Assembly: GCA_044871175.1 (NCBI GenBank)
Contig: JBIOZN010000056.1
Span: 1-48,878, forward strand
Length of the DNA stretch: 48,878 nt
Direction: 5' to 3'
DNA from: Acidimicrobiales bacterium
Lineage (GTDB): Bacteria; Actinomycetota; Acidimicrobiia; Acidimicrobiales; Ilumatobacteraceae
Under the pieces are notes generated by a model, which ran no database searches, was not told the DNA's origin, and saw only the letters and a program-made list of their open reading frames with translations. The translations under genes were made by a program, and so were the position numbers. Position 1 is the stretch's first letter. The number at the start of each line of letters is the position of its first letter. Below are positions 10,335-45,470 of the stretch, piece after piece.

Positions 10335-10337
10335 GGC

Positions 10338-11808: not shown

Positions 11809-11816
11809 GCGGCCTC

Positions 11817-30334: not shown

Positions 30335-30362
30335 CGACCAAGGGTGTCTAGCGTGGGTGGGC

Positions 30363-32925: not shown

Positions 32926-33326
32926 GCGATTGCCTCCATCATCCAGTCGTTGTTGGGCACGGCCGGCAGGTTGGCGTACCGCTCCGGGTGGGCCGGCGTG
33001 TACACCCAGGCCAGGTGGTCATCCCCCCAAGCATCGGTGACGCGGGCGGCGACGCGACAGTAGAAGTGGGGCACGCCTTCCAACCGGTCCATGAGCGGCA
33101 GGCCGACCAGTTCGGCGGCCGCGTCGTCCCAGCGGATCAGGTCGACCACGGTCAGGGCGCCCGGCTCGGGAAGGGCGAACGGGAAGGCGCGGCCGTGGCC
33201 GACGAGACGGAAGCCGTGGAGAACGCCGGGCTCGGCCCGGGCCAGCCCGGACCACAGGCGGGCGTTGCCTCCGCCCTCCCGCAGGGTGCCGTACACGGCG
33301 ACGGGCCGGATCGTGTCGCAGCTCAT
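32922..33326 (-). CDS. gamma-glutamylcyclotransferase (GGCT/AIG2-like) family protein
   Basis: VAVYGTLREGGGNARLW… N-terminal YGTLxxG motif. 134 aa, typical size. Confidence 0.65.
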   Translation of the reverse strand: MSCDTIRPVAVYGTLREGGGNARLWSGLARAEPGVLHGFRLVGHGRAFPFALPEPGALTVVDLIRWDDAAAELVGLPLMDRLEGVPHFYCRVAARVTDAWGDDHLAWVYTPAHPERYANLPAVPNNDWMMEAIA

Positions 33327-33765: not shown

Positions 33766-34059
33766 TCAGGCGATGCGTTCCACCGCCACCGTGAACGCCG
33801 TCAGCGGCCGGTTCGGTTGGCCGTCAGCGCGCAGCGGCCGCACGGTGCTCTGCGTCTGCCAGGCCGTGAACGCCTCGCCCGCCGACGGGAACGTCAACGC
33901 CTCGGCGGCGTGCGAGGTGAGCATGGCGTCGCCACGCCCGTCGAAGGCGTCCACGTCGAACCACTTCACCCACTGGCCTGCCACCTCGGCGCCGCGTGCG
34001 GGGTTGCTCGCGACGCCGACGACCTGCAAGCCCCAGGCGCCCCGGGGCCGGCGGCTCAC
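33766..34059 (-). CDS. hypothetical protein
   Basis: GTG 34059 in a GTGA overlap with the DUF932-like stop. Ordinary composition. Confidence 0.65.
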   Translation of the reverse strand: MSRRPRGAWGLQVVGVASNPARGAEVAGQWVKWFDVDAFDGRGDAMLTSHAAEALTFPSAGEAFTAWQTQSTVRPLRADGQPNRPLTAFTVAVERIA

Positions 34060-35186
34060 GCCGCCACCGCCAGTTGGGCCGCCCGGAGCGCGCCCGCCTC
34101 CAACTCCAGCGCCGTGTCACCGTCGTCCACGTCCTGGGAGACGTAGGTGACCGCCTGGGCGACCCCCAGGGCCGACGTGTCACCGCCAGCGACGAAGGCG
34201 TTGAGGATGGCGTCGGCCTGCGCCGCCGAGTAGCCCATGCCCCGGGCCACCACCTGCAAAGCGGTGGCGGGCTCGGTCAGCTGGTGGCCGGCCAGGGTCC
34301 GCAGCCGGTTGATGGCGGTGTTCAGGTAGGCGGGCGACAGGAAGCTCGCCACCGCGTCACGGGTGCGGGCCTTCACCAGTTCCAGGTTGCGTTGGTGGGT
34401 GTCGTCGGACCACTGCACGACGCCCTCCTCCAGCACCCCGCCGAGGTGGACAGCCTTCTGGGCGTCCATGGTCTGGGTCATGCCGTTGGTGCAGACCTGC
34501 ACCACGATCCGGGGCACGATGCGGAACGCACCCTCACCCACCTCGCTGTTGGTGATGACCAGGCCGGCGTGGATGATCGGGTGGTCGCGGCCGGTGCGGC
34601 CGGAGCGGGGATCGCGGTACCGATCGAGCAGGTCGGGGGCGGCCGCTGTCACCTCCGGGGCGGTCACCCGCACGATCATGCGCCGCTCGGTCAGGTCGGC
34701 CCCGGTGACGGTGGCGGTGACGCCGGCAGCGTTGATGCCGTCCAGGGCGGCCAGGAGGATGTCGAGGTCGTCCATAGGCCGGTAGCGGTCCGACAGGATC
34801 GCCCGACAGAGGGGGGTGGAGCCTTCGCCGCCCCGCAGGGTGCGGACGTAGTGGGCCCGGTTGTCCTTCGCCAGCCAGTAGTTGGCGTTGGTGGCGAGCA
34901 GGTCGGGGGCGGTCTCCCGCATGCGCCGCCAGTAGGCGGTGGGCACGCCCAGCTTCTCGATGAGGTGGCCGTGAGCGACGTTGGTGAGGTCGTGGGCGAC
35001 GAGGGTGTCGGTGGTGGTGACGCCTTCCAGGCTCATCTCGTGGGCCTGTTCGGTGACGACGAGGTGGCCGGTGGCGCTCATGCGAAGCGCGCTGCTCGGG
35101 GCGACGAGGTCGTGGCGCTGGACCGAGCGGTCTTGCAGGGCTTTGACGATGACGTTGAGGTCGCCATCGCGGATCGGGTCGAACAT
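34056..35186 (-). CDS. DUF932-like phage/plasmid protein
   Basis: Trimmed from ORF 34056..35315 to ATG 35186 (CCCCTACCCaccAGGAGacacacaccc upstream). The overall pattern (…AILSDRYRPMDDLDIL…VITNSEVGEGAF…) resembles DUF932. Confidence 0.6.
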   Translation of the reverse strand: MFDPIRDGDLNVIVKALQDRSVQRHDLVAPSSALRMSATGHLVVTEQAHEMSLEGVTTTDTLVAHDLTNVAHGHLIEKLGVPTAYWRRMRETAPDLLATNANYWLAKDNRAHYVRTLRGGEGSTPLCRAILSDRYRPMDDLDILLAALDGINAAGVTATVTGADLTERRMIVRVTAPEVTAAAPDLLDRYRDPRSGRTGRDHPIIHAGLVITNSEVGEGAFRIVPRIVVQVCTNGMTQTMDAQKAVHLGGVLEEGVVQWSDDTHQRNLELVKARTRDAVASFLSPAYLNTAINRLRTLAGHQLTEPATALQVVARGMGYSAAQADAILNAFVAGGDTSALGVAQAVTYVSQDVDDGDTALELEAGALRAAQLAVAA

Positions 35187-35244
35187 GGGTGTGTGTCTCC
35201 TGGTGGGTAGGGGTTGATCTAGGAAGCCTAGCGCAGCGGGGGGC

Positions 35245-35970
35245 TCAGGCGCCCACGCTGAACAGGCGGGGCTCGTCCACCGGCACCCGCCGACGGACGA
35301 CCTCTTTGCCGTCACGCACCGCCAGGTACGTGCCGACGGGAACGTTGATGACCACGTCGGGCGACACTCGGGCGGCGACGCTCATGCGGGCCAGGCACTC
35401 CAGGGTGGAGGCGTAGACCCGGCTGCCGTCAGGCCAGTGGGCCTCCAGCAGCGGCCGGCCGGACAGGCGGGCGACGTGCAACGTGGGGTCCTCGGGGTGG
35501 AGCCAGGCCAGGGCGGCGGAACCCTCGATGGCGGCCAGCCGGGGCACGATCTCGCTCGGCTTGGCGTCGGCCAGGGCGGCGGCGACGGCGTCAGTGTCCA
35601 CCTCGGCCAGGGCGGTCGCTCCCGCCATGGCGTACAGCAACTCGGGGTTGGCGACGGTGCCGTTGTGGATGAGGACGATGCCGGGCCGCACGACGGGGTG
35701 GTTGTTCCGGTTGTCGCGGGGGCTGCCGGTGGTGGCGTAGCGGACGTGGCCGAGCACGTTGCCGGCGTCCCGGGACAGGCGCAGGGTGGGCGCCCACACG
35801 TCGGCCGGTTGGCCGGCCTTGGCGTACCAGACGGACTGGTCGGCCCGCTGCCAGGCGGCGCCGGTGGCGTGGTGACCGCGGGGAAGCAGGGCCTTGAGCC
35901 CGGCTCGGGTCATGCGCCCCAGGTGCAGGGTGGAGCCGGGGGCGGGGGCGATAGCGAAGATGCCGCACAT
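35245..35970 (-). CDS. class-II (Ntn) glutamine amidotransferase
   Basis: Trimmed from ORF 35245..36648 to ATG 35970. N-terminal MCGIFAI (catalytic Cys2), GHVRYATTGS, NNHPV, LIHNGTVANPELL. Confidence 0.8.
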   Translation of the reverse strand: MCGIFAIAPAPGSTLHLGRMTRAGLKALLPRGHHATGAAWQRADQSVWYAKAGQPADVWAPTLRLSRDAGNVLGHVRYATTGSPRDNRNNHPVVRPGIVLIHNGTVANPELLYAMAGATALAEVDTDAVAAALADAKPSEIVPRLAAIEGSAALAWLHPEDPTLHVARLSGRPLLEAHWPDGSRVYASTLECLARMSVAARVSPDVVINVPVGTYLAVRDGKEVVRRRVPVDEPRLFSVGA

Positions 35971-36004
35971 GGGTGCTCTTTCGGGTAGGGGTGAGGCGTT
36001 AGTC

Positions 36005-36033
36005 AGTCTAGCGGGCGTAGCGCCCCGCCGCAA
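36005..36033 (-). promoter_or_regulatory. conserved sigma70-type promoter, copy C (TTGCGG-N17-TAGACT)
   Basis: Minus strand: GTTGCGGCGGGGCGCTACGCCCGCTAGACTGACTAA. Its -35 overlaps the hairpin at 36021-36048. Confidence 0.65.
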
Positions 36034-36048
36034 CGTGGCGGCGGGGCG
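36021..36048 (-). terminator. 11-bp GC hairpin after the amidoligase gene, overlapping the promoter C -35
   Basis: CGCCCCGCCGC (36021-36031) pairs with GCGGCGGGGCG (36038-36048). The loop is 6 nt. Confidence 0.45.
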
Positions 36049-36053
36049 GAAGC

Positions 36054-37109
36054 TCAGTTGGAGCGGGCGACCCGGGCCCGCAGGGCCGTCACCGTGGCGG
36101 CCGGCAGGCTCAGGCTCTCGATCAGCCGGTCCACCGACCGGGTGCGGGCCGGCGGGGCCACCAGGGTGCCGGCGGCCGCGGCGGCCACCGCCGCCGCCAG
36201 CAGCCGCACCCACGTCCGCATCTCGGCGGAGCGCACCGTCCCGTGATGCTGCCTGAACTCCAGGCTGCCCCGGGTGAGCAGGTGGGCCGGGTTGATCGAC
36301 CGGTAGCGGTCCACGGCCGGGCGGAAGCCGATGCGCTTCGCCGCCTTGATGTTGTCGACCTCGGAGGCGCTGAGGCTCTGGCACCAGCGGCTCCGGGAGC
36401 GGCCCGCCCGGAACAGCCGGTTGATGGCCGACTGGCCGTGCGTGTACCAGTCGATCAGCGTGTCCAGCTGGTCGGCGTTCAGCATGCTCACGTCGACGTG
36501 GACGTGCATCCCGGTGCGGCCCGTGCCCTGGGCGCCCGCCGCCCGCAGGCTGTCCATGACCGTGACGGCCTCGGCCAGCCCGGCCTCGCCGGCCAGGATG
36601 GGGCTGACCACCTCGGCGTCCACGGTGCTGTCGCGCTCGGCGCTCCACTCGCGGTAGCCGGCCGCCTGAGCGGCGTGCCAGCCACCCGCCCGCACCGTCC
36701 GGCCCAGCGCCGTCTGCGTGGCGGCGGCGGCGGTGGTGATGCTGATGCCGTCCACCTCGATCTCGACGCCGAACCGGAACCAGTCGGCGATGAGCACCTC
36801 GACCGGGGTGGCGGCCGACTCGACCGGGGCGACCGGCTCGCCGGCCTGGGCCGGGCGGGGCAGGTGCGCCACCAGCGGGTGCTCCCAGTAGGTGCGGGCG
36901 TCGCGGGCCGCCTCACGGGCCGACCGGCGGTCGATGTTGGGGGCCTGGCCGGCCAGCCGGGCGCCGACGATGTGGGCGTCCCAGGCGGCGGCGAAGGTGG
37001 CGAGCCCGGCCAGTTCCTGGGTCCGGCGCCAGCTGGTGCCGATCTGGCGAAGCTCGAAGACCTGGGCGGCCTGCTCTGCGGTGAACCGGCTGCTGGTGGT
37101 GCGGGGCAT
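36054..37109 (-). CDS. amidoligase (COOH-NH2 ligase, Amidoligase_2 family)
   Basis: Trimmed to ATG 37109 (AGGAGcgcttcg upstream). FGVEIEV…WSAERDSTVDAEVVSPILAGEAGL…GRTGMHVHVD…SLEFRQHHGT matches the family pattern closely. Confidence 0.75.
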   Translation of the reverse strand: MPRTTSSRFTAEQAAQVFELRQIGTSWRRTQELAGLATFAAAWDAHIVGARLAGQAPNIDRRSAREAARDARTYWEHPLVAHLPRPAQAGEPVAPVESAATPVEVLIADWFRFGVEIEVDGISITTAAAATQTALGRTVRAGGWHAAQAAGYREWSAERDSTVDAEVVSPILAGEAGLAEAVTVMDSLRAAGAQGTGRTGMHVHVDVSMLNADQLDTLIDWYTHGQSAINRLFRAGRSRSRWCQSLSASEVDNIKAAKRIGFRPAVDRYRSINPAHLLTRGSLEFRQHHGTVRSAEMRTWVRLLAAAVAAAAAGTLVAPPARTRSVDRLIESLSLPAATVTALRARVARSN

Positions 37110-37141
37110 CGAAGCGCTCCTGGGTAGGGGGGGCACTAGTC

Positions 37142-37170
37142 ATACTAGTTGACGTAGCGCCCGGGCGCAA
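37142..37170 (-). promoter_or_regulatory. conserved sigma70-type promoter, copy D (TTGCGC-N17-TAGTAT)
   Basis: Minus strand: GTTGCGCCCGGGCGCTACGTCAACTAGTATGACTAGTG. Also shares about 25 bp upstream of the -35 with copy A (…GAAAGAGCCAC…). Confidence 0.65.
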
Positions 37171-37219
37171 CCCCACCCATGTGGCTCTTTCGGGAAAGAC
37201 TCGGGAACGGCCGAACGGC

Positions 37220-38287
37220 CTACGCGGCCAGCGCCGCCAGGCGGGCCCGCACCGCCAGGTCCACCACCACGTCCACCACCAAATGCACCCGGTCCACCGT
37301 CGTTGGGTTGTCGACAGCGTGCGGCTTGCGGGCGTCCAGGTAGTAGCAGTGGCCGGCCTGGAGGTGGCGCACCGTCTCCTCACCCTCCAACGACCAGGCC
37401 CGCATCACAATGCGCGGGTCGGTCACCAGTGGCACGTGGAACCGGGCGATCTGCCCAACACGAGTGCCGGCGGCCCGGTCGGTGATGTCGGTGTGCCGGC
37501 CCAGATGGCCGTCACCAGTGCCGGCCATGCGCAGCAGCCGCACCCGCTCAGTCCGCGACCACCACGGCACCGCCTCCACTGCCGCGCGCACGGCCGGGCA
37601 CCGCTCCGCCAGCACCGTCCAGTCGCACACGTACCGCAACGACTCAGGATGCTCGGCCTGCCAGGAGCGGGGCATCTCCGACGGCTTGACCCCCCAGCGG
37701 GGATCGTCAGGCCGGAAGCCGCGCAGGCTCACCGCGCTCCACGACCCGTCGCTGTAGAACGGGAAGTCGTCGTGCCAGGCGTCCACCGCCGCCACCTCGG
37801 CCAGCAACGGTCCCAGGTCGAAGGTTTCCGGTAGCTCGGCCAGAGTCACCCGGTCGGCCGGCCCCACCGGCACACCCGACCCGTAGCCCCAACCGGTGAT
37901 CAGCTCGCCGGCTGCTGTCACCCGGTGCAGGTCGGGGGTGCGGCCCTGCGCGGCCAGCCCGTCGGCCAGTCCCCGGTCCTCCCGGTAGGCGTACACGACG
38001 TCGTACCCGGCGAAGCTCGGGATCGGGCCGGCCGGCGTGCGGGCCACGTGGGTCACCTGCCGGGTGCCCGCCGGGAACACGACGGTGGCGCCAGTGAAGT
38101 CGGCCCGTCTCGACGGTCTCCGCAGCACGCTCGTCACCGCCACCGTTCGTTCGGGGCCGGCGGTCCATTCGCGCAGGCCCACCCGCCCGGAGCGCAACTC
38201 GTTGGCGCTGGGGGTGGCGAACGCGCCCGCGCCGAAGCCTTTGGCGTAGCCGGCCAGGAGCCGGGCGGCGGCCGCCACGTCAGTCAT
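37220..38287 (-). CDS. two-domain protein with C-terminal aspartyl/asparaginyl beta-hydroxylase-like 2OG-Fe(II) cupin
   Basis: HLGRHTDITD…RFHVPLVTDP…GHCYYLDARKPHAVDNPTTVDRVHLVVD fits the Asp/Asn-hydroxylase family pattern. The N-terminal ~200 aa are not recognised. Confidence 0.6.
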   Translation of the reverse strand: MTDVAAAARLLAGYAKGFGAGAFATPSANELRSGRVGLREWTAGPERTVAVTSVLRRPSRRADFTGATVVFPAGTRQVTHVARTPAGPIPSFAGYDVVYAYREDRGLADGLAAQGRTPDLHRVTAAGELITGWGYGSGVPVGPADRVTLAELPETFDLGPLLAEVAAVDAWHDDFPFYSDGSWSAVSLRGFRPDDPRWGVKPSEMPRSWQAEHPESLRYVCDWTVLAERCPAVRAAVEAVPWWSRTERVRLLRMAGTGDGHLGRHTDITDRAAGTRVGQIARFHVPLVTDPRIVMRAWSLEGEETVRHLQAGHCYYLDARKPHAVDNPTTVDRVHLVVDVVVDLAVRARLAALAA

Positions 38288-38435
38288 GGCGCTCCGCCTC
38301 GACCTTCCGTTGCAACTCCTCGCCCCACGCGATCAGGTCGATGATGTCCTGGTTGCGGTAGACGGCCTCCCCGCCGAAGGCGGCACCCAGCGACTGTGCC
38401 CGTCGCTTCAGCTGATCCCGCTGTTCAGGCGTCAC
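38280..38435 (-). CDS. hypothetical small protein
   Basis: Trimmed to GTG 38435 (GTGA overlap). VTPEQRDQLKRRAQSLGAAFGG…. Confidence 0.5.
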   Translation of the reverse strand: MTPEQRDQLKRRAQSLGAAFGGEAVYRNQDIIDLIAWGEELQRKVEAERHD

Positions 38436-38551
38436 GGCCGCACCTCGCGGCGCTCGCACCACCAGCACACTTCATCCCGGCCCCGCTCCTCGAACGAGCC
38501 CGTGCGCCAGATCGCCCCGCAGCGCGGGCACCGGACCGGGTGCTCGTTCAC
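38432..38551 (-). CDS. 39-aa zinc-ribbon micro-protein
   Basis: GTG 38551 in a GTGA overlap with the upstream stop. CPRCG…CWWC. Confidence 0.45.
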   Translation of the reverse strand: MNEHPVRCPRCGAIWRTGSFEERGRDEVCWWCERREVRP

Positions 38552-39432
38552 GGCCACGCCACGATCCTGCCTGAGTCCCGGTACCAACGCAGCCTGGACT
38601 TGTCGATGCCGGCGGCGATGCCCACCCACGGGTCGGGGATGGTGTTCTCCCACGCCCACTGGAGGATCGCCCGGTCTTGGGCGGGGGCGGCCTGGATCTC
38701 CGCTCTGAGGGCGGCGAGGTGGCGGCCCGGGTAGTAGCGGCCGTCCCGCATCACGTTGAAGTCGCAGATGACCGTCTCAAAGTCCACCCAGGCCAGGGGC
38801 ACGCCTGCGGCCGCCAGGTGGTCGCGGCACTCGGCGGCGATCGCGTCGAGCCGGGCCGGGGACGGGTTGGGTTCGTCCCAGATGCGTTCCAAGGCGCGCC
38901 GGGGCCCGGACGACTCCCACAAGCAGGCGTCGGGCGCGCTCACCGGCACCCCGTTGACCTTCATGGCGAACTCGGCCCACTCGAAGGCAGTCTGCCGTCC
39001 CACGCCCCACACCGTCCGCAGATGCACCAGGAGCTGCCCCCAGTCGGCCTCCGGGTGGTCGCCGGCCAGACAGGACCGCAGCCAGGCGTCCGGGTCGGGC
39101 AGGGCCCGGCGGGCGTAGTCGTTGAGATGGACGACGACCTTGCCGCCCCGCAGGTTGCGGCGCTCCTGGGTGCAGGGGAAGCGGGCGATGTCATCCCGGT
39201 CGAATGCCTCCAACCATGCGCCCAGCGACGGCCACAACCGGAACGCGGCCCAGGCCGACCCGAAGTCGTCGAAGGCGTTGTACAGCTTCACCAGCCAGCC
39301 GGCCTCGGCGTCGGTGACCACGTCGAGCCCGCGCAGGGTGCGGAGCAGCGCCGCCCACGGCTCCAGGTCACCGGAGTCGGCCTCGATGCGGGCGAAGGTG
39401 ACGAGGTCGGCGAGGGTGGCCCGGTCGATCAT
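38548..39432 (-). CDS. HhH/DNA-glycosylase-fold protein, candidate alpha-glutamyl/putrescinyl-thymine pyrophosphorylase-like (aGPT-Pplase-like)
   Basis: Trimmed to ATG 39432 (ATGA overlap with the kinase stop). VWGVGRQTAFEWAEF is a GxGxxTA helix-hairpin-helix-like motif. The family call is from context and memory, not verified. Confidence 0.4.
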   Translation of the reverse strand: MIDRATLADLVTFARIEADSGDLEPWAALLRTLRGLDVVTDAEAGWLVKLYNAFDDFGSAWAAFRLWPSLGAWLEAFDRDDIARFPCTQERRNLRGGKVVVHLNDYARRALPDPDAWLRSCLAGDHPEADWGQLLVHLRTVWGVGRQTAFEWAEFAMKVNGVPVSAPDACLWESSGPRRALERIWDEPNPSPARLDAIAAECRDHLAAAGVPLAWVDFETVICDFNVMRDGRYYPGRHLAALRAEIQAAPAQDRAILQWAWENTIPDPWVGIAAGIDKSRLRWYRDSGRIVAWP

Positions 39433-39965
39433 CGCAGCACGATGTCCACGAGGGAGCGGGCCAGCGTGCACACCGGGCCGTCGCCGGGCACGTCCAGTCG
39501 GGGCCCGTCCCAGGCGGCGACCAGGTTGTTGACCTTGGTGCGCCGGCCCGCCAGCCAGGCCGGGTTCGGGGCCCAGCCGCGGCTGGCCCGCCGCTCGGCG
39601 GCGACAGCCGGGTCGAGCGTGACCTGGACCAGGAGCACGTCGTAGCCGACGGCCCGGGCGGCGTCGAAGAACTTCAGGTTGGCGAGCCGGTCACCTTCAC
39701 CGAGGACGAACCGGCCGGGGGCGTCAGCCAGCCAGGCGCGCGCCCGGGGCCCCACGCTCATGCTCAACGCGTCGGTGCCAGCGAACCGGGCCCGGCGCAC
39801 CCCCAGGTAGCAGCCGTCGACCACGCCGGTCACCCGGTCCACCAGTTCCACGTGAGCGAAGGGTTTGGCCCGGGGATGTTCATGCCAGTCACCCACCGCC
39901 AGCGCCGCGCCCAGCAGAGTTGTCTTGCCCGCGCCCGGTTCGCCCACCACGTACACCAGCAGCAC
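39429..39965 (-). CDS. small P-loop NTPase/kinase (candidate 5-hmdU DNA kinase-like)
   Basis: Walker A VVGEPGAGKTTLL at the N-terminus. 178 aa. Translationally coupled to the HhH-fold gene. Confidence 0.6.
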   Translation of the reverse strand: MLLVYVVGEPGAGKTTLLGAALAVGDWHEHPRAKPFAHVELVDRVTGVVDGCYLGVRRARFAGTDALSMSVGPRARAWLADAPGRFVLGEGDRLANLKFFDAARAVGYDVLLVQVTLDPAVAAERRASRGWAPNPAWLAGRRTKVNNLVAAWDGPRLDVPGDGPVCTLARSLVDIVLR

Positions 39966-39977
39966 CCATCGAGCGTG

Positions 39978-40214
39978 TCACCCGCAGCGGTGAGGCGTGT
40001 ACAAGGTCTGCCCGTTGTCCCGGCGGGCCTTGGCCTCGTCGGCGTCCAACGCCTCCGCCCACGGGGGCGGGCCCCGATGCACCACCACTCGCCCCGAGCC
40101 CGGGTTGGGGGCGGCGTCCAGGGCCATGATGCGTTCGTCGGGGCCCAACACCCGCCACACGTAGGCGCCGCACCGGGTGCAGCAGTCGCCGGTGGTGCGC
40201 CGACGGAAACTCAC
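39978..40214 (-). CDS. Cys-rich small protein, paralog of 40211..40459
   Basis: GTG 40214 (GTGA overlap). CCTRCGAYVW…ALDAAPN…TLYTPHRCG parallels its neighbour. Confidence 0.55.
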   Translation of the reverse strand: MSFRRRTTGDCCTRCGAYVWRVLGPDERIMALDAAPNPGSGRVVVHRGPPPWAEALDADEAKARRDNGQTLYTPHRCG

Positions 40215-40459
40215 CGCCGCTTCCGCTTCCGCCATTCGCCGGCCTGCGGGCAGGTGACGAAGTGCGACAGGTACAACGGGCCTTCCACCAGGCTCGCCTC
40301 CATCGGCCCCAGCACCCGCGACGTGAGCAGGGCGCCGTCAGCGGTCACCTCCACGTTGCCACCCTCGATCGGTAGCTCGTTGACGGGCAAGGCTTTGCCC
40401 GCCTCGGTCACCGTCCACACGACGGCCGCCTGGCAGGAGCCGCACCGGGCCCCTGTCAC
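40211..40459 (-). CDS. Cys-rich small protein (CxxC…C), paralog of 39978..40214
   Basis: GTG 40459 (GTGA overlap). CGSCQAAVVW…LPVNELPIEGGNVEV…LSHFVTCPQ. Confidence 0.55.
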   Translation of the reverse strand: MTGARCGSCQAAVVWTVTEAGKALPVNELPIEGGNVEVTADGALLTSRVLGPMEASLVEGPLYLSHFVTCPQAGEWRKRKRR

Positions 40460-40554
40460 TCCGGGCCCTCGGCCAGGAGGCGGCCCACGACCAGGCCGAC
40501 CACGACCGACATCACGCACCAGACGGCGATCACGTAGCACGCCGTCGCGATCAC
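40456..40554 (-). CDS. 32-aa transmembrane micro-protein
   Basis: VIATACYVIAVWCVMSVVVGLVVGRLLAEGPE. GTGA overlaps at both ends. Below the ORF-track cutoff. Confidence 0.4.
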   Translation of the reverse strand: MIATACYVIAVWCVMSVVVGLVVGRLLAEGPE

Positions 40555-41411
40555 AGGTGGGCCTCCCGGCGGGAGGCGGCGTTCTCGTCCTGCAAGCGGG
40601 TGGCCTCCCGGGCGGCCCGCAACGGCTCGTCGGCCGGGTCAGGCGCGCATCTCGCCATGCCCGTGCGGGCGTACAACACCACCGTGTACCGGTAGCCGCC
40701 CGACTTGGTCAGCCGGAACGGGGTGACCCCGTGCAGCACCGACTGGCCGTCGAACATGAGCAGGCTGCCGTGGGGGACGGTGAACACGGTGTTGTAGTCG
40801 GCGAGGTGGAGCAGGCCACCCTCGCAGTGGCGTTTGGCGGCCAGCATCACGCTCCACGACCCGACCACGTTGCCGGCGTCACGGTGGTAGGGCAGGCCCG
40901 AGTTGCCGTTGACGATGCCACTGGTGAACGGGGTGCCCGGCAGCCGCCAGGCCGGCGGCACCCCCTTGGCGTCCACCCGGGCGACCGTGTCGGTGTACTG
41001 CTCGGGGGCGGCCACAGCGAAGCTCGCTGTCATCGCCCGGCTCGCCTCCCACAGCACCGCCCCCAGCGTCGGGTATTCGGACTCCAGGGCGCAGCGGCGG
41101 CAGTCGTACCGTTTCCGCAGCGGCACCGGAGGCAGGTAGCCGAACGTGCGGGCCGGGCTGCACAACCCGGACAGGCGGGCCTGGCTGTTGGACGAGAAGG
41201 TGTCCGAGTAGCGGATGTGGCGCAAGTGGTGGGCGACCGCGGTGGCCAGGGCCTCCCGGCCGGTGGCCTGAACGGCGATCAGCTTGCCGGTCGCGGCGTC
41301 CACCAGTCGGGCCGACCCGTCCAGCACCTGGGCGCCGGGCAGGGCGGCCGGGGCGTGGGCCCGGCGGCGGGCCGTCGGGTGCTCACGGCGGTGCGCCGCA
41401 TGGGTCAGCAT
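40551..41411 (-). CDS. 2OG-Fe(II) dioxygenase (TET/JBP-like candidate)
   Basis: HxD (LPYHRDAGN), distal His (SVLHGVTPF) and Arg (GYRYTVVLYAR) at the spacing expected for a DSBH oxygenase. The TET/JBP assignment is inferred from context. Confidence 0.55.
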   Translation of the reverse strand: MLTHAAHRREHPTARRRAHAPAALPGAQVLDGSARLVDAATGKLIAVQATGREALATAVAHHLRHIRYSDTFSSNSQARLSGLCSPARTFGYLPPVPLRKRYDCRRCALESEYPTLGAVLWEASRAMTASFAVAAPEQYTDTVARVDAKGVPPAWRLPGTPFTSGIVNGNSGLPYHRDAGNVVGSWSVMLAAKRHCEGGLLHLADYNTVFTVPHGSLLMFDGQSVLHGVTPFRLTKSGGYRYTVVLYARTGMARCAPDPADEPLRAAREATRLQDENAASRREAHL

Positions 41412-41629
41412 TCCGGCTCCGGTTCGGGCTCAGCGCTGTCGCCGTTGCCGCGCCGCTCGGCCCGGTCAATCACCGCCAACACCCGGCTCAACAGTTCCTC
41501 GGCGCCCACCAGGCCCCGAATGGAGGCGTTGATCTGGTCGCGCTGGGCCCGCAACTGGGCCAGCGACTCCCGCACGTCCAGCAGGCGGGTGGTGGTGTGC
41601 TCCTTCAACTCCTCCCGGGTGTCCATCAC
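41405..41629 (-). CDS. hypothetical coiled-coil protein
   Basis: ORF-track ORF. GTGA overlap with the ParB-like stop. Confidence 0.6.
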   Translation of the reverse strand: MMDTREELKEHTTTRLLDVRESLAQLRAQRDQINASIRGLVGAEELLSRVLAVIDRAERRGNGDSAEPEPEPEC

Positions 41630-42264
41630 GGCTCCGTTTCCACCTGCCGCACCGCTTCGATCACCAGTTGGTAGATGACGCCGGCATTGGTGTCCAGGTC
41701 CAGGGCCCGGCGCAACACGCCCAACGCCTCCACCATGGTGTCGAAGGTGGCCGTCGGGTAGGGCAACACGATCGACCGCAGGTCGGCGGCCTCGTACTCG
41801 TTGGCCCGTTCACCCGGTTCCTGGCCCTGACGGACGGCGCCGTAGCCGCCCTCGGTGAGCGACTGGAGCAGCAGCCCGTACGCCTCGGCGTCGAAGCCGG
41901 TGCCGGCGTAGTCACCGTCAAGCTCGTTGAGCAACGCCATCAGGGCGGCGTCGTCGTAGGCGGCCAGGTCGTTCGACCGGTTGTCGACCAGGAGGATGCG
42001 GCGGGCCTGCTCGTCGTCGACGTCGAGCCGGATCACGTCCACATGGGTCCAGCCGACCGACACGGCCGCCTCCACGGTGCCGTGACCGGCGATGATCCGG
42101 TTGGTGCTGGCCTGCACCAGGATCGGCCGGTACTGGCCGTGGGCCCGCAGCGAGTCGGCGATGACGGCGATGTCGTGGATGCGGGGGTTGCCCGGCCAGG
42201 GCTCCAGGTAGTCGATGGGCACCGACTCGACCTGGCGGGTAGGGGTGTCAGTCACGCTAGCCAC
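41626..42264 (-). CDS. ParB N-terminal-domain (ParB/Srx-fold) protein
   Basis: IDYLEPWPGNPRIHD…IIAGHGTVEAA… ParBc motifs. Start is GTG 42264, or GTG 42255 if leaderless from the TAGGGT element. Confidence 0.7.
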   Translation of the reverse strand: MASVTDTPTRQVESVPIDYLEPWPGNPRIHDIAVIADSLRAHGQYRPILVQASTNRIIAGHGTVEAAVSVGWTHVDVIRLDVDDEQARRILLVDNRSNDLAAYDDAALMALLNELDGDYAGTGFDAEAYGLLLQSLTEGGYGAVRQGQEPGERANEYEAADLRSIVLPYPTATFDTMVEALGVLRRALDLDTNAGVIYQLVIEAVRQVETEP

Positions 42265-42268
42265 CCTA
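42257..42268 (-). promoter_or_regulatory. partial promoter copy: -10-like TAGGGT + GGCTAG directly before the ParB-like start (no -35)
   Basis: Minus TAGGGTGGCTAGCGTGACTGACACCCCTACCC parallels promoter B, TAGACTGGCTAGTCGTGAACCCCACCCCTACCC. Confidence 0.3.
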
Positions 42269-42278
42269 GCCCGGAAGC

Positions 42279-42318
42279 ACAGCGACCCCCGAGCGGCGGG
42301 CCGCTCGGGGGTCGCTGT
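42279..42318 (-). terminator. perfect 18-bp stem / 4-nt loop hairpin
   Basis: ACAGCGACCCCCGAGCGG-CGGG-CCGCTCGGGGGTCGCTGT, between the stop at 42381 and the ParB-like start. No U tract. Confidence 0.55.
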
Positions 42319-42380
42319 CCCCTACCCAGGGGAGCCCCGAGGGGGCGCGCCCCAGGTTACCCGATGACCGCCTAGAGACG

Positions 42381-42569
42381 CTAGCGGGCGGGTCCGGCCA
42401 GGTCGGCGGCGTCAGGGTGAAGGGCGGTGGCGAGCGCGACGAACCAGCGGGCCGCCGCGGCACGGCCACCGACATCGGCGCCAAACCAGGCGGCGAGCGC
42501 CTCGGCGGTCACCCCTGCGTCCTCGTGCAAGGCCGTCCGGGCCAGCGCGCCCGGGGTCACCTCACTCAT
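42381..42569 (-). CDS. hypothetical small protein
   Basis: Trimmed from ORF 42381..42716 to ATG 42569 (ATGA overlap). Confidence 0.55.
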   Translation of the reverse strand: MSEVTPGALARTALHEDAGVTAEALAAWFGADVGGRAAAARWFVALATALHPDAADLAGPAR

Positions 42570-42736
42570 CGGGGCCTCACCGCGGCCACGATGCAGGACC
42601 GCCACCAGCCGCACATCGGGCAGCGCACCACCTCGGTGCGGGTGGTTTCGCCGTAGCCGCCATGGAAGAACAGGGCCGGCTGCTCCCAGGCCCTGGCCGC
42701 CAGCGGCCCCCCGCACTCGGCGCAGCCCGGCGGCAT
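42566..42736 (-). CDS. zinc-ribbon small protein
   Basis: ATG 42736, 1 nt after the upstream stop. CAECGG…CPMCG. Confidence 0.55.
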   Translation of the reverse strand: MPPGCAECGGPLAARAWEQPALFFHGGYGETTRTEVVRCPMCGWWRSCIVAAVRPR

Positions 42737-42737
42737 C

Positions 42738-43259
42738 TCAGTGACCGCGGCAGACACCACCGGAGCACGTCCACGCGTCAGGGCCCTGCTCGGCGAGGAT
42801 GAGCGCCGCCATGGCCGTGTTGCCGTCCAGGGTGCGGATGTCGAAGCCCTTGTCCCGGGCGACGTTCTGCCACACCTTCTCGTGGATCTGGAACGCGCCG
42901 ATCTCGCCGTACGGGCCCACCTTCTCCATGTGGAAGTCGCTTTCCGCCCAGGCGGTCTCGCACGCCCACTCCTGCCACAGCGCAGGGAAGTGAGCCCGGA
43001 TGGCGGCGGACACTTCGCCAGCGTTGCTCATCTCCGGGTGGCAGAGCGGGGTGGTGGGCGAGGTGGGCGGGACGGTGGGCAGGGTGGGCGGGGCCGGGGC
43101 CGGGGCCGGCTGGCCGGCGACCGTCGTGGTGGGGGCCGCGGTCGTGATGTCGAGCCGAGGGTCGTGCCAGGCGACGGCCAAGACGAACGCGGTGGTCACC
43201 CCGACCATCGCCAGCCACTGCAACACCTCCCAGACGCGTTCACCCCAGGTCACTCCCAC
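42738..43259 (-). CDS. membrane-anchored lytic transglycosylase (SLT-like)
   Basis: N-terminal TM (VLQWLAMVGVTTAFVLAVAW), Pro/Thr linker, ETAWAESDF…EIGAFQI catalytic-Glu motif. Confidence 0.75.
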   Translation of the reverse strand: MGVTWGERVWEVLQWLAMVGVTTAFVLAVAWHDPRLDITTAAPTTTVAGQPAPAPAPPTLPTVPPTSPTTPLCHPEMSNAGEVSAAIRAHFPALWQEWACETAWAESDFHMEKVGPYGEIGAFQIHEKVWQNVARDKGFDIRTLDGNTAMAALILAEQGPDAWTCSGGVCRGH

Positions 43260-43561
43260 GACCTCCGCAGCAGGCCCCGCCGGTGGGCGAGGGCGACATG
43301 GTCATGAACGGCCCGGTGATGGGAGGCGCACAACACGACCACGTTGTCCAGGTCCAGTTCGCCGCCCGGGCGCAACGAGCGTTGCACCCGTTCGTGGGCG
43401 TCGAGCCCGCCGTGGCAGCGGATCTCCGGCCAGACCTTCTCGGCCTCGCAGACGAAGTTGGCGCGCCGCAACGCCTCGTCCACGACGGCGCGCCGTTCCC
43501 GGGCCTGGGCGGCCCGGCGCAGGCTGACCTGCGACAGCCGGGCCCGGCGGCGCAGGGTCAC
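43250..43561 (-). CDS. HNH endonuclease
   Basis: Trimmed to GTG 43561 (GTGA overlap). CEAE…CHGGLDAHERV…DNVVVLCASHHRAVH. Confidence 0.75.
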   Translation of the reverse strand: MTLRRRARLSQVSLRRAAQARERRAVVDEALRRANFVCEAEKVWPEIRCHGGLDAHERVQRSLRPGGELDLDNVVVLCASHHRAVHDHVALAHRRGLLRRSWE

Positions 43562-43830
43562 GGCAGGTTGCGGGTGGAGTAGCTGACCCAGGCGGCCAAC
43601 CGGCGCAGGCTGGTCACGTTGGGCGGCACGGCGTGGCTGACCCAGCGGGACAGGTCGTAGCGGGACAGGTCGGCCTCGGCGGCGACCTGGGCCCACGGGA
43701 CCATGCGCCGGGCGTGCTCGGCTCGGACGGCGGCGAGGATGGTTTCACGGCAGGCGTCCAGGGCGGCCGCCGCCTCGTCCAGTGCGGCGGTCAGGTCGTC
43801 CAAGGGGACGCTGGGCATCACGCGAGGCAT
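43558..43830 (-). CDS. hypothetical protein
   Basis: ATG 43830 after GAAGGAGtccaccgtc. First gene downstream of promoter E. Confidence 0.7.
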   Translation of the reverse strand: MPRVMPSVPLDDLTAALDEAAAALDACRETILAAVRAEHARRMVPWAQVAAEADLSRYDLSRWVSHAVPPNVTSLRRLAAWVSYSTRNLP

Positions 43831-43867
43831 GACGGTGGACTCCTTCGGGTCAGGGGGGTGACTACCC

Positions 43868-43897
43868 AGTCTAGCCGGGCGTAGCGTCGTCGCGCAA
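43868..43897 (-). promoter_or_regulatory. conserved sigma70-type promoter, copy E (TTGCGC-N18-TAGACT), embedded in the 3' end of the upstream gene
   Basis: Minus strand: GTTGCGCGACGACGCTACGCCCGGCTAGACT. The TAG of the -10 is the stop codon of 43871..44332. Confidence 0.6.
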
Positions 43898-44332
43898 CGT
43901 CAGGCGGCCGGCGGAGGTGATGCGGCGCACCACGGCCCGACGGCCCGACCGGTTCACCCGCCGCTCCTCGGTGTCCACGGCCAACCCCTTCAGCACCAAA
44001 GCCCGCAACCGGGCGCTGAGCGACTGGTGCCGGCCGCCCAGCAGGGCCTCAACCTCGTCGCTGGTCAGCCCGTCCTCGTGGGCGGCCAGCACCCGCAGCA
44101 CCACCCGCTCCTGGGCCTGGACGTGGGGCAGCATCGAGTAAGCGGCATCAATGGAGGTGTCGGAGCCGGCCACGTAGCCGGGGGCGTCCGGGTAGTGGAA
44201 GCCAACCTCGGCCCGGCAGCCGGCGCACAGCCCGCCGGTGACGTCGTTGGGGTGGAGGCTGGTGGCACCGCACCGTTTGCACTCGGCCGGGTCATCCCAG
44301 AAGGAGGGTTGCTGCGGCGGGGCAGGGGGCAT
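43871..44332 (-). CDS. zinc-ribbon + winged-helix (MarR-like) DNA-binding protein, apparently leaderless
   Basis: CKRCG…CAGC, then VLRVLAAHEDGLTSDEVEALL…RLRALVLKGLAV. ATG 44332 lies 6 nt after a TAGAGT -10-like element. Confidence 0.7.
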   Translation of the reverse strand: MPPAPPQQPSFWDDPAECKRCGATSLHPNDVTGGLCAGCRAEVGFHYPDAPGYVAGSDTSIDAAYSMLPHVQAQERVVLRVLAAHEDGLTSDEVEALLGGRHQSLSARLRALVLKGLAVDTEERRVNRSGRRAVVRRITSAGRLTLRDDATPG

Positions 44333-44552: not shown

Positions 44553-45470
44553 TCAGCGCTTGGGTATGACGGCGTAGAAGTCGCGCTCGTTCCAGTCCTT
44601 GTAGCGGTCGCCGGTCGGGATGTCACCGACCAGCGTCACGTTGGTCATGTCCGCAGCGCCGATCTCCGCCTTGTGCGTCACCCCGGCGATGATGGCCGGC
44701 GCCCGCCAGGCCGAGCCCGGGCCGGTCCATTCCATGGTGCCCAGGATGAGCGGCTCCAGCTGGGCGGGACCGTAGAAGGCGGCGTCAGCGTCGCGGCACT
44801 GCACGAGGGTCAAAGGCATGTCGTCCTCCGGTTCGGGAGTGGGGCCGGGCAGCACGCCCCCGGCACGGCGGCGGCATTCCGCCTTCAGATCGCTGAGGTT
44901 CCAGGTGCCCGAGTTGTTGACCGACCCGGGCTGCCACGGGCCCTCCACCGCCGACGCCTTCGACGGGTCAACCTTGCGGTCCGGCGCCCACGTGTAGTGC
45001 AGGGCGACGTCGTCAGGCTGGTTGCCGCAGTGGGCGTTGATGGCGTTGGAGACGGCGAAGGCGGCGTCGACCTGCGCCTGGCTGTAGGAGCCGCCGCCGC
45101 CGTTGTTGCAAATCTCGATGCCGAAGGCGTAGCTGTTCATCGAGTCGCCGGGCACCGACCCCTTGGAGAACGACACCCCGTCGCCCGAGCCGTTGGTGTT
45201 CGTCGGTCCACCGGCGAGCAGCCACACGTCGCCGTTGCGGTCGATGCACACGTTGGCGATGGGCGCGGCGTCAGCGCCGTAGCACATGTAATGCGACTCG
45301 CTCTCCGCCGAGTTGTTCGACCCGGTGTGGTGCCACATGCACCCCCACGGCCGGCCCGAGTTGTAACCGCCGCTCGACTTGCACCGGTACTTCCAGTCAT
45401 CGAACTCGATGACGTTGCAACCAGCGGCTCGCAGCCAGTGCGCGGCTTCGGTCAGGAACACGTCACCCAT
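44553..45470 (-). CDS. N-acetylmuramoyl-L-alanine amidase (amidase_2/PGRP-type) endolysin
   Basis: WHHTGS…NVCIDRNGDVWL…AFGIEICNNGGG…ALHYTWAPDRKVDP pattern, plus a C-terminal domain. Confidence 0.8.
   Translation of the reverse strand: MGDVFLTEAAHWLRAAGCNVIEFDDWKYRCKSSGGYNSGRPWGCMWHHTGSNNSAESESHYMCYGADAAPIANVCIDRNGDVWLLAGGPTNTNGSGDGVSFSKGSVPGDSMNSYAFGIEICNNGGGGSYSQAQVDAAFAVSNAINAHCGNQPDDVALHYTWAPDRKVDPSKASAVEGPWQPGSVNNSGTWNLSDLKAECRRRAGGVLPGPTPEPEDDMPLTLVQCRDADAAFYGPAQLEPLILGTMEWTGPGSAWRAPAIIAGVTHKAEIGAADMTNVTLVGDIPTGDRYKDWNERDFYAVIPKR

Follow-up and report, generated by a model that had tools for sequence, protein, structure and literature searches.

Gene content of the locus

The window, by which we mean the whole stretch of 48,878 nucleotides analysed here, is a siphovirus contig from a high-GC siphovirus of actinobacteria. 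The genes and ORFs that concern us are listed below from high to low coordinates.

41626–42264, minus strand: ParB-like protein (212 aa; Pfam ParB_N), predicted to activate the neighbouring thymine dioxygenase
41405–41629, minus strand: helical ORF of 74 aa with an acidic tail, between ParB and the dioxygenase and overlapping both
40551–41411, minus strand: TET/JBP-family 5-methylpyrimidine dioxygenase (286 aa; Pfam Tet_JBP), predicted to convert thymine into 5-hydroxymethyluracil in DNA
40456–40554, minus strand: hydrophobic ORF of 32 aa, overlapping the dioxygenase stop by 4 nt
40211–40540 (109 aa, start uncertain) and 39978–40235, minus strand: two Cys-pair (zinc-ribbon-like) ORFs, from their translations
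39429–39965, minus strand: P-loop kinase (178 aa; Pfam Ploopntkinase3) whose predicted substrate is 5-hydroxymethyluracil in DNA
38548–39432, minus strand: amino-acid:DNA transferase (AADT/aGPT-Pplase, 294 aa; Pfam ADDT), predicted to exchange the phosphate of 5-phosphomethyl-dU for a nucleophile
38432–38659 (start uncertain), minus strand: CxxC ORF of 75 aa, from its translation
38280–38468, minus strand: ORF of 51–62 aa (51 aa according to gene callers on sister contigs)
37220–38287, minus strand: two-domain 2OG/Fe(II) oxygenase (355 aa; Pfam Asp_Arg_Hydrox), predicted tailoring enzyme for a DNA-bound adduct
36054–37136, minus strand: Amidoligase_2 (COOH-NH2 ligase, glutamine-synthetase-like; Pfam 5.5e-25), putative accessory tailoring or donor-synthesis enzyme
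35245–35970, minus strand: stand-alone class-II (Ntn) glutamine amidotransferase domain (241 aa; Pfam GATase_6, 6e-11)
32922–33326, minus strand: γ-glutamyl(amine) cyclotransferase, AIG2-like (134 aa; Pfam GGACT, 4.7e-14)

The original prediction had proposed the ParB, dioxygenase, kinase and transferase genes as the core of a thymidine hypermodification system. These four minus-strand ORFs have a strong GC3 coding signal, and they and every motif claimed for them were found exactly where they had been placed. The members of this core were thus correct, but their number was not: the conserved core has five genes, including the oxygenase at 37220–38287. Judged from their sequences, the five are recognisable as a putative gene set for decorating the phage's own thymines after replication.

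The small CxxC and transmembrane ORFs said to be interleaved with the core are present but not conserved: we found no convincing counterpart in related loci, the sole match being a 25-residue fragment in one of them (L011). No homologue of the 74-aa ORF was detected in these loci by tblastn, and it appears to be lineage-specific. The Cys-pair ORFs within 39978–40540 have no Pfam match, the 32-aa ORF may or may not be expressed, and the two ORFs within 38280–38659 show essentially no conservation. The claim that all genes are chained by GTGA/ATGA overlaps was overstated. Three 4-nt overlaps are real (ParB with the 74-aa ORF, dioxygenase with the 32-aa ORF, and kinase with transferase, an ATGA), but the others measure 7 nt (74-aa ORF and dioxygenase), 8 nt (62-aa ORF and oxygenase) and, as drawn, 85 nt (109-aa and 32-aa ORFs) and 112 nt (75-aa CxxC ORF and transferase), and a 12-nt gap precedes the kinase. 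The two longest overlaps make the true starts of the 109-aa and 75-aa CxxC ORFs uncertain. The longest transferase ORF begins at 39471 (GTG), and a start at the ATG at 39432 agrees with the homologues as well as with the kinase coupling.

Assignment of the core proteins to families

Pfam matches were judged against the gathering thresholds, and all four families score above them: ParB_N (E 4.3e-6, 27.1 bits, cut-off 26.3), Tet_JBP (E 6.7e-16, 58.4 bits, cut-off 34.9), ADDT (E 1.2e-12, 48.5 bits, cut-off 26.2) and Ploopntkinase3 (PF18751; E 4e-33, 115 bits, cut-off 27). Profile searches, which the original prediction had named as a check, thus bear out its family assignments: TET/JBP, a P-loop kinase of phage DNA modification, and aGPT-Pplase. 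The order ParB-TET-ADDT-oxygenase-kinase recurs in over 30 distinct loci from phages, prophages and metagenomes; given these scores and this synteny in independent loci, the gene set is more than a chance finding.

The ParB-like protein also matches PHROG 723 (8e-41) and has its GNPR motif at residues 25–28. Its sequence matches in the PDB are Noc, Spo0J and ParB, and are confined to the N-terminal domain. An alignment of the clade shows that NPR and DNR boxes are retained, that AGHGT or AGNHT stands in place of the canonical GERR box, and that the C-terminal domain is conserved. Neither the PDB matches nor this alignment revealed a recognisable DNA-binding HTH. An N-terminal ParB/CTPase-type domain (NBD) followed by a conserved CTD is the architecture of the 5mYOX-associated ParBs recently characterised as activators of phage T-dioxygenases (PMC13229309), which offer a better precedent than the role in the Dpd system to which the protein had been likened.

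In the dioxygenase, YHRDAGN, LHGVTPF and RYTVVLY occupy residues 175–181, 226–232 and 241–247, and the HRD and HGV motifs line up with the fungal TET structure 7vpn. H176, D178, H227, R241 and C255 are invariant in the clade, whose members continue for about 31 aa after C255. Such a C-terminal extension is reported to be specific to ParB-dependent enzymes, and thymine oxidation has been demonstrated for homologous pairs of T-dioxygenase and ParB (PMC13229309).

The transferase, with GVGRQTAFEW at residues 143–152 (38977–39006), shares the ADDT family with M6 gp51 and PaMx11 gp46, both shown by experiment to be glycine transferases. The profile of its clade matches the solved AADT structures 25qc (3e-12) and 8z2m, which is PaMx11 gp46 (2.6e-4). 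Residues D22, E90, E219, T220 and C223 align with D24, E92, E243, T244 and C247 of gp46, the last being a nucleophile proposed from modelling rather than proven (PMC11472151). The glycine-binding W146 and K150 of gp46 (PMC11472151) are replaced by Q147 and E151, so the donor is probably not glycine.

The Walker A motif of the kinase (GEPGAGKTT, residues 8–16, 39918–39944) is invariant across the family, as are FxGTDAL and GEGxRL. The protein had been proposed to be a 5-HMUDK. It does belong to a family of phage DNA-modification P-loop kinases, but this is PF18751, whereas the validated 5-HMUDKs form PF18748. Pfam found no HMUDK_hel partner, and the protein looks like a non-orthologous replacement of 5-HMUDK. 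A related locus (L013) encodes a transferase 45% identical to that of the window, flanked on one side by a thymidylate-synthase-like dUMP hydroxymethylase and on the other by a bona fide HMUDK with HMUDK_hel, an arrangement suggesting that the same transferase clade works downstream of 5hmU and a kinase. By comparison of the two gene sets, the TET-ParB pair and Ploopntkinase3 of the window would fill the roles of that hydroxymethylase and HMUDK.

The two-domain oxygenase (Asp_Arg_Hydrox, 5.4e-9) has a C-terminal double-stranded β-helix of the AspH/proline-hydroxylase type, in which H265-x-D267...H323 is invariant in 30 homologues. Its AF2 model (pLDDT 93.8) has proline hydroxylases and AspH as top Foldseek matches in the PDB, and these nearest structural relatives use free amino acids as substrates. 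A fold search with the N-terminal domain gave non-significant matches only. The gene always lies between those of the transferase and the kinase in the more than 30 related loci. Family members are fused to an M6 gp52-type PLP enzyme or to ParB_N and DNA methylase domains, and an M6 gp52-like PLP gene adjoins the short marine relatives. These associations point to a family that works in a DNA context.

A predicted pathway of thymidine hypermodification

No DNA polymerase, dUMP hydroxymethylase/thymidylate-synthase homologue or C5-methyltransferase was found in any coding ORF of the window, and this part of the genome encodes no route to 5-hmdUTP. Thymine would therefore need to be oxidised in situ. 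The predicted sequence of dioxygenase, kinase and transferase is the best reading of the gene set, and we think it probable that the cluster is an operon that hypermodifies thymidine after replication and belongs to the type with a ParB-dependent T-dioxygenase. By analogy with the homologous pairs, the ParB-activated dioxygenase (40551–41411) would oxidise thymine in double-stranded DNA to 5-hydroxymethyluracil, the kinase (39429–39965) would add a phosphate to the new hydroxyl, and the transferase (38548–39432) would exchange this phosphate for an amine or hydroxyl nucleophile through its conserved Cys/Glu-Thr/Asp site. In the weakest of the core steps, the oxygenase (37220–38287) might tailor the DNA-bound adduct, either by hydroxylating it or by trimming it oxidatively in analogy with the flavin lyase step of PaMx11. 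More speculatively, the amidoligase, the Ntn-GATase and probably GGACT might amidate or extend a carboxylate or amine of the adduct, or else prepare or deprotect a γ-glutamylated donor.

Systems of this type have already been described. Their architecture was noted by O'Toole 2026 and by Lee 2021, which credits its prediction in 2013 to Aravind and colleagues. The suggestion that the set, combined with the amidoligase arm, specifies an uncharacterised chemistry thus holds for the end product but not for the architecture, which is published, amidoligase/GATase association included (PMC8989533, PMC13229309, PMC11955845).

Alternative substrates and roles

Membership in TET/JBP by itself leaves the substrate undefined. 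Phage TET enzymes that oxidise 5-methylcytosine exist (PMC8256090), and the characterised T-dioxygenases are reported to oxidise 5mC in vitro as well (PMC13229309). Were 5mC and not thymine the substrate here, the product of the cluster might be a hypermodified cytosine, comparable to those of the TET-dependent 5hmC pathways known from other phages. We regard this as very improbable: the coding ORFs of the window include no C5-methyltransferase, the partners are a thymidine-pathway kinase and an AADT instead of glycosyltransferases, and the enzyme shares its ParB partner and its C-terminal extension with the T-dioxygenase subclass. The kinase raises a different doubt, since its family also occurs in mycobacteriophages lacking the rest of the module and its substrate may be broader or different. 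Hundreds of cluster B mycobacteriophages, including B1 phages without dioxygenase and transferase, have a member of this family as gene 1, beside the terminase; Mycobacterium-phage records number about 376 for the kinase, 64 for the dioxygenase and 6 for the transferase, and in PG1 the rest of the module is absent from both genome ends. Homologues are annotated as 'terminase small subunit', also the label of PHROG 800, or as 'adenylate kinase'. Together with its membership in PF18751, this could indicate a packaging-associated or nucleotide kinase, the transferase using another activated intermediate. Yet the proven 5-HMUDKs of M6 and PaMx11 share the same mis-annotation, and the gene of the window lies about 7 kb from TerL, overlaps the transferase, is strictly syntenic with transferase and oxygenase, and occupies the position that HMUDK holds in L013, all of which makes that explanation improbable.

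The modification likely shields packaged DNA from host nucleases, the function ascribed to all thymidine hypermodifications described in PMC5889632 and PMC8989533. The T oxidation reported in PMC13229309 is only partial and sequence-selective, so bulk protection against restriction is not assured. That work describes NTR/YTY preferences and itself raises an epigenetic-like role, and sparse sequence-specific marks could regulate packaging, replication or gene expression instead. The clade's ParB looks like a DNA-loading clamp protein, and the module almost always adjoins terminase genes in related phages; however, this adjacency could merely mirror late expression, and the cluster of the window is itself away from the terminase. 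We hold such a regulatory role to be rather unlikely.

The amidoligase arm

The glutamine amidotransferase domain, whose PDB matches are the glutaminase domains of GlmS and PurF, starts with MCGIF, placing the catalytic Cys right after the initiator Met. It is paired with an amidoligase in five other loci (L007, L056, L022, L081 and L082). The GGACT gene, about 2 kb downstream and transcribed in the same direction, also accompanies both genes in L007/L049 and L081, and is possibly a third member of the arm. There is nevertheless an appreciable possibility, if not one we favour, that the three genes are an auxiliary module of their own, next to the operon but unconnected with it, and modify for example a protein or a metabolite. 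Only a minority of lineages have them beside such a cluster, most of the loci that carry the five-gene core do without them, and amidoligase-GATase pairs occur in phages without known T modification. Amidoligases are found in many unrelated phages (38 records, from Arthrobacter, Bacillus, Porphyromonas and gut phages) and, according to the literature, in LUZ24-like Pseudomonas phages, and between GATase and GGACT lie three small ORFs and a generic DUF932 gene. Against this, genes of the arm stand beside ParB/TET-type clusters in no fewer than five different settings (the window, Arthrobacter phage Ottawa, L007/L049, L056, and L081, where a TET-associated glycosyltransferase is present), and the same association with amidoligase/GATase genes has been reported (PMC8989533, PMC13229309).

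A candidate thymidine hypermodification cluster built on five conserved genes

The original prediction proposed a thymidine hypermodification core of four genes, and all four open reading frames were found where it placed them, together with every motif it quoted. Among the predicted families, Tet_JBP, ParB_N, and ADDT were all matched by profile search in Pfam. All four genes are thus present, but the conserved module has five: the prediction left out a 355-aa oxygenase.

Core genes of the module
41626-42264, minus strand: ParB-like protein (ParB_N, Pfam 4.3e-6)
40551-41411, minus strand: TET/JBP-type dioxygenase (Tet_JBP, Pfam 6.7e-16)
39429-39965, minus strand: P-loop kinase (Ploopntkinase3, Pfam 4e-33)
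38548-39432, minus strand: amino acid:DNA transferase (ADDT, formerly aGPT-Pplase, Pfam 1.2e-12)
37220-38287, minus strand: two-domain 2OG oxygenase

The module emerged from a synteny survey in which the proteins of the window were compared by tblastn with 75 loci from cultured phages, IMG/VR, metagenomes, and genomes. The transferase, the 355-aa protein, and the kinase are consecutive in more than 30 distinct loci, usually with the ParB and dioxygenase genes directly upstream and the terminase directly downstream. In the window, the five core genes occur in a permuted order, with lineage-specific small ORFs interspersed. The ATGA overlap between kinase and transferase and several other overlaps of 4-8 nt are real, but the coupling does not extend to every junction, contrary to what had been claimed. 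Four of the small ORFs (38432-38659, 39978-40235, 40211-40540, and 42566-42760, all on the minus strand) have two Cys pairs each and are zinc-ribbon-like; the start is uncertain for two small ORFs of the operon. We considered the small CxxC and transmembrane ORFs as conserved parts of the pathway and dropped them because they are not conserved in related loci. With these corrections, the interpretation of the cluster as a thymidine hypermodification system is supported.

This type of system is already known. According to the account given by Lee et al. 2021 (PMC8989533), Aravind and colleagues predicted in 2013 the kinase and its glycosylase-like transferase partner. Lee et al. also catalogued contigs with TET_JBP in the place of the hydroxymethylase (PMC8989533), actinophage genome notes already annotate such systems (PMC11955845), and the first step, by dioxygenase and ParB, was reconstituted in 2026 (PMC13229309). 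In the literature that we searched, this first step is the only one shown experimentally for the actinophage branch relying on in situ oxidation, and no end product is reported. What we add is the conserved five-gene module, whose fifth member belongs to a large and so far uncharacterised family of 2OG oxygenases with two domains.

The dioxygenase and its ParB partner

For one subclass of phage TET/JBP enzymes, experiments by O'Toole et al. (PNAS 2026) demonstrated that thymine in dsDNA is oxidised only when a cognate ParB is present (PMC13229309). The activator ParB keeps the nucleotide-binding and C-terminal domains and lacks the DNA-binding domain, the dioxygenases that depend on it extend C-terminally past the last conserved Cys, and mutations in the NTP site of such a ParB had little effect (PMC13229309). 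The pair in the window fits each sequence-level feature described for these systems of 5mYOX (the TET/JBP-type dioxygenase) and ParB.

The dioxygenase matches PF12851 with 58.4 bits (cut-off 34.9), and its HRD and HGV motifs align with the solved fungal TET structure 7vpn. The clade alignment shows no variation at H176, D178, H227, R241, and C255, and all aligned relatives have an extension of ~31 residues after C255. Homologues of the dioxygenase carry the name 'queuine tRNA-ribosyltransferase' in error: they are Tet_JBP proteins. As for the ParB, the ParB_N match covers only residues 11-95 of its 212 residues, the PDB matches to ParB/Noc proteins are restricted to the N-terminal domain, and the clade alignment reveals an acidic linker and a conserved C-terminal block. 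We infer that this ParB lacks the DNA-binding HTH. In the whole clade, residues 59-63 read AGHGT/AGNHT in place of the canonical GERR arginine box, and the NPR and DNR boxes are kept. CTP binding or hydrolysis may be unlike that of chromosomal ParBs, and the altered box fits the small effect of the NTP-site mutations in PMC13229309.

By its published description, the ParB-dependent 5mYOX clade C1 resembles the window in several respects: the TET/JBP gene adjoins a ParB without a DNA-binding domain, the enzyme has the post-Cys extension, there is no C5-methyltransferase, and the neighbours in both include a P-loop kinase, an amino-acid:DNA transferase (AADT), and a glutamine amidotransferase (GATase). 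It differs in that the window has a 74-aa ORF between ParB and dioxygenase and in that the window's ParB clade has AGHGT instead of GERR. The downstream steps of the 5mYOX systems are not characterised in PMC13229309.

Profile searches of all coding ORFs of the 48.9-kb window found no C5-methyltransferase, no thymidylate-synthase homologue, and no DNA polymerase. Hence, the phage most likely replicates with host dTTP and creates 5hmU within the DNA polymer, which is precisely the activity of a T-dioxygenase. The ParB had also been likened to that of the Dpd system of 7-deazaguanine modification. This parallel fails, as does Dpd-type modification itself: the window lacks TGT and preQ0 genes, and its ORFs have no match to TGT, QueC, QueD, or QueE in profile searches.

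The transferase has an altered glycine pocket

The transferase matches PF18724 (ADDT) with 48.5 bits (cut-off 26.2). A PDB search with the single sequence gave nothing meaningful; it took a profile of the clade to match 25qc (3e-12) and 8z2m (PaMx11 gp46, 2.6e-4), both solved AADTs. The proven glycine:DNA transferases M6 gp51 and PaMx11 gp46 (PMC8989533) fall in the same Pfam family. For gp46, a modelled reaction scheme proposes Cys247 as the nucleophile, with metal-binding Glu243/Thr244, Asp24, and Glu92, and the glycine is held by Trp146 and Lys150 (PMC11472151). The catalytic residues correspond to C223, E219/T220, D22, and E90 of the window's transferase and are invariant in its clade and in M6, PaMx11, and ΦW-14. 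The positions of Trp146 and Lys150 are occupied by Q147 and E151, within the clade-conserved motif GRQxAFEW. The protein is therefore a member of the AADT family and not an orthologue of the glycine transferases; its predicted donor is an entity other than glycine.

On the IMG/VR contig L013, the stretch 7884-12269 holds HMUDK_hel, HMUDK_HMUD1, and a thymidylate-synthase-like gene together with a transferase that is 45% identical to the window's and belongs to its clade. There, the transferase is flanked by the thymidylate-synthase-like gene on one side and by HMUDK with HMUDK_hel on the other, the arrangement of the canonical pre-replicative route. This transferase clade thus serves both the pre-replicative route and that of in situ oxidation. 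In the position expected for the oxygenase, this contig has an unassigned 227-aa ORF.

The kinase belongs to another P-loop family

The original prediction anticipated a 5-HMUDK, the 5-hmdU DNA kinase. The P-loop kinase is intact, with the Walker A, FxGTDAL, and GEGxRL motifs invariant in the family, but the family is PF18751 and not the 5-HMUDK profile PF18748, which is absent from the matches listed for this protein and is matched by M6 gp54. In BLASTP against M6 gp54, only the P-loop aligns, and a single-sequence search of the PDB gave nothing meaningful. In M6 and PaMx11, validated 5-hmdU DNA kinases of family PF18748 precede an HMUDK_hel protein, which is also found in L013; no ORF of the window matches HMUDK_hel (PF18723) in profile searches.

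Genomic context nevertheless supports a 5-HMUDK-like function, because the kinase is strictly linked to the transferase (by the ATGA overlap and by synteny in more than 30 loci) and because L013 pairs the window's transferase clade with an HMUDK, in the slot that this kinase fills in the window. Against this function, hundreds of cluster B mycobacteriophages have a member of the same kinase family as their gene 1, next to the terminase. Among Mycobacterium-phage records, the kinase occurs in ~376, the dioxygenase in 64, and the transferase in 6, and neither end of the genome of PG1 (L076, L084) has a ParB, dioxygenase, or transferase gene.

In cluster B1 mycobacteriophages, gene 1 is a family-3 P-loop kinase adjoining the terminase large subunit. 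In public records, the P-loop kinases of DNA modification are systematically named 'terminase small subunit' or 'adenylate kinase', even the proven M6 gp54 and PaMx11 gp49. TET/JBP genes are labelled as 'queuine tRNA-ribosyltransferase' or 'oxidoreductase' (mislabels were examined in L001, L017, L018, and L076). These errors are widespread, and we flag 'queuine tRNA-ribosyltransferase', 'terminase small subunit', and 'adenylate kinase' in particular.

A large family of two-domain 2OG oxygenases

The fifth core protein has a C-terminal 2OG/Fe(II) domain of the AspH/proline-hydroxylase type (PF05118, 36.5 bits, cut-off 22.6), with the DSBH fold and an invariant facial triad H265-x-D267...H323. 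Its AF2 model (pLDDT 93.8) retrieved 4p7w (1.8e-8), 1e5r, and AspH structures with Foldseek. We searched by modelling for a DNA- or base-binding fold in the N-terminal domain and found none. Modelled alone (pLDDT 84.5), this domain had GNATs as its best PDB matches (E ≥0.02, TM ≤0.43), and the acetyl-CoA-binding motif Q/RxxGxG/A is not visible in its alignment. Since the GNAT-like matches are weak, we left the domain without a fold assignment.

The family comprises at least 352 clusters at 50% identity (E ≤1e-30). Fusions occur in the family, either with a PLP enzyme (M6 gp52 type) or with ParB_N plus DNA-methylase domains. Among the cultured phages of our collection, none apart from Mycobacterium phage LilMcDreamy has this oxygenase. 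In the pathway, the enzyme would tailor the DNA-bound adduct, by side-chain hydroxylation or by an oxidative trimming like that of the PaMx11 flavin lyase. Marine metagenome loci (L062-L071) encode short proteins that match only the C-terminal domain (~38% identity); they lie ~600 nt upstream of an M6 gp52-like PLP gene, a different, marine version of the pairing.

The amidoligase arm

Three further genes of the window form what we call the amidoligase arm.

Genes of the amidoligase arm
36054-37136, minus strand: Amidoligase_2 (PF12224, 5.5e-25)
35245-35970, minus strand: Ntn glutamine amidotransferase (GATase; PF13522, 6e-11), starting with MCGIF, which provides the N-terminal nucleophile Cys
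32922-33326, minus strand: AIG2-like γ-glutamyl(amine) cyclotransferase (GGACT), 134 aa, downstream and in the cluster's orientation (PF06094, 4.7e-14)

Between members of the arm lies a DUF932 protein (34056-35186, minus strand), which we excluded as a pathway member: proteins of this kind are frequent in plasmids and prophages of Streptomyces, whose chromosomes, plasmids, and phages encode hundreds of homologues, and the gene is not specific to the cluster. Drawn as a 419-aa ORF (34056-35315), it probably starts at the ATG at 35186 and has 376 aa.

The association of amidoligase and GATase with these systems was noted, without a function, by Lee et al. 2021 (PMC8989533) and O'Toole et al. 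2026 (PMC13229309). The arm accompanies the module in a minority of the related loci. A word-indexed search with the amidoligase returned only 9 homologous proteins, so the statistics of association rest on a handful of loci; a single-sequence PDB search with it gave nothing meaningful. That the arm plays a role independent of DNA modification is a live explanation, in line with the amidoligase genes found in many unrelated phages and with the amidoligase/GATase pairs described in the literature for LUZ24-like Pseudomonas phages. Yet genes of the arm are neighbours of ParB/TET-type DNA-modification genes in five separate settings: the window, L007/L049, L056, L081, and Arthrobacter phage Ottawa. 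The GGACT gene is likewise found with amidoligase and GATase in L007/L049 and L081, the latter also carrying a TET-associated glycosyltransferase. Ottawa (L022, 37401-44903) encodes the amidoligase, the GATase, three or four ParB-like genes, the dioxygenase, and the kinase, and has no detectable amino-acid:DNA transferase, which suggests a variant pathway with something else in the transferase's place.

If the arm does take part in DNA modification, it could act on an amine-bearing side chain of the adduct, either by adding and removing a protective γ-glutamyl group or by amidation. We put slightly below even the chance that the altered-pocket transferase, the two-domain 2OG oxygenase, and the family-3 kinase together install a chemically undescribed thymine adduct that the amidoligase arm elaborates further. 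The less specific claim, in which the product is simply some hypermodified thymine that is chemically new, has a roughly even chance of being correct. If the fuller reading is true, this phage and the hundreds of relatives that carry the oxygenase family would possess both a new hypermodified base and a 2OG oxygenase of a new, DNA-acting class. Thymidine hypermodifications are a major means for phages to evade restriction and CRISPR-type nucleases, and also yield enzymes for DNA labelling and sequencing chemistry.

Comparison with known systems

The pathways of phages M6 and PaMx11 (Pseudomonas), ViI (Salmonella), and ΦW-14 (Delftia) follow the same logic as that proposed here, from 5hmU in DNA through a kinase and an amino-acid:DNA transferase to tailoring (Lee et al. 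2018, Lee et al. 2021, Wen et al. 2024). The window's transferase belongs to the same Pfam family as theirs, with Asp, Glu, Glu-Thr, and Cys conserved, and the gene order of PaMx11 (transferase, oxidative lyase, acetyltransferase, kinase) parallels the transferase-oxygenase-kinase order of the window's relatives. However, their 5hmU comes from a dUMP hydroxymethylase, whereas the window's route is in situ oxidation; their kinases are PF18748 with HMUDK_hel, that of the window PF18751; and the glycine-binding Trp and Lys are not conserved in the window's transferase. Tailoring also differs, relying on PLP, radical-SAM, flavin, and acetyltransferase enzymes in these phages and on the 2OG oxygenase, amidoligase, and GATase in the window.

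A cultured counterpart of the module is in LilMcDreamy, whose genes 1-5 (L001, 1-4333) encode consecutively the ParB, the TET protein, the transferase (54% identity), the two-domain oxygenase (49-50%), and the kinase (45%). In contrast to the window, these genes are in the canonical order adjoining the terminase, and the amidoligase, GATase, GGACT, and interleaved small ORFs are absent. RefSeq labels them as queuine tRNA-ribosyltransferase, hypothetical, and terminase small subunit. With the same core and M. smegmatis as host, LilMcDreamy is a tractable test system. Rhodococcus phage Tonitrus has an annotated five-gene 'THM system' (PMC11955845); its transferase is more distant (27%), and no homologue of the oxygenase is detectable. 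Base J of trypanosomatids (JBP1/2 and a glucosyltransferase) resembles the proposed pathway in that a TET/JBP enzyme oxidises T to 5hmU post-replicatively and the hydroxymethyl is then decorated. It differs by its direct glucosylation, with neither kinase/transferase chemistry nor a ParB partner, and by its eukaryotic organisms.

The contig outside the cluster

The following genes were identified outside the cluster.

Phage genes of the window
3291-5972: tape measure (profile search)
8243-10105: portal (profile search)
16601-18046, minus strand: 481-aa protein with PKD, SLT transglycosylase, and extensin-like domains, probably a tail-associated lysin
18722-21181, minus strand: 819-aa collagen-repeat fibre (collagen triple-helix repeats, 1e-24), probably a tail fibre
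26663-27568: major tail protein (profile search)
28517-30364: major head protein (profile search)
30695-32278, plus strand: terminase large subunit (profile search)
44553-45470: amidase endolysin (profile search)

Given the phage genes identified by profiles, the window is a siphovirus-type phage contig. Its G+C content is 72%, and nearly every gene lies on the minus strand. The nearest relatives of its proteins are in actinobacterial phages and prophages of Mycobacterium, Kribbella, Microbacterium, and Arthrobacter. At the DNA level, megablast of the region 34000-44000 against 50,697 phage records gave no match, and no tRNA or terminal repeat was found in the window. At ~1440-2160, G+C is high in all three codon positions and no reading frame stands out. 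Long overlapping ORFs run across this stretch on both strands, and the 416-aa ORF at 985-2235 has no Pfam match; the stretch is either a low-complexity protein region or non-coding. Upstream of the cluster are an HNH endonuclease-like ORF (43250-43696, minus strand; PHROG 740/144) and a gene for a 153-aa protein (43871-44332, minus strand) with an N-terminal CxxC...CxxC and a weak MarR/HTH match.
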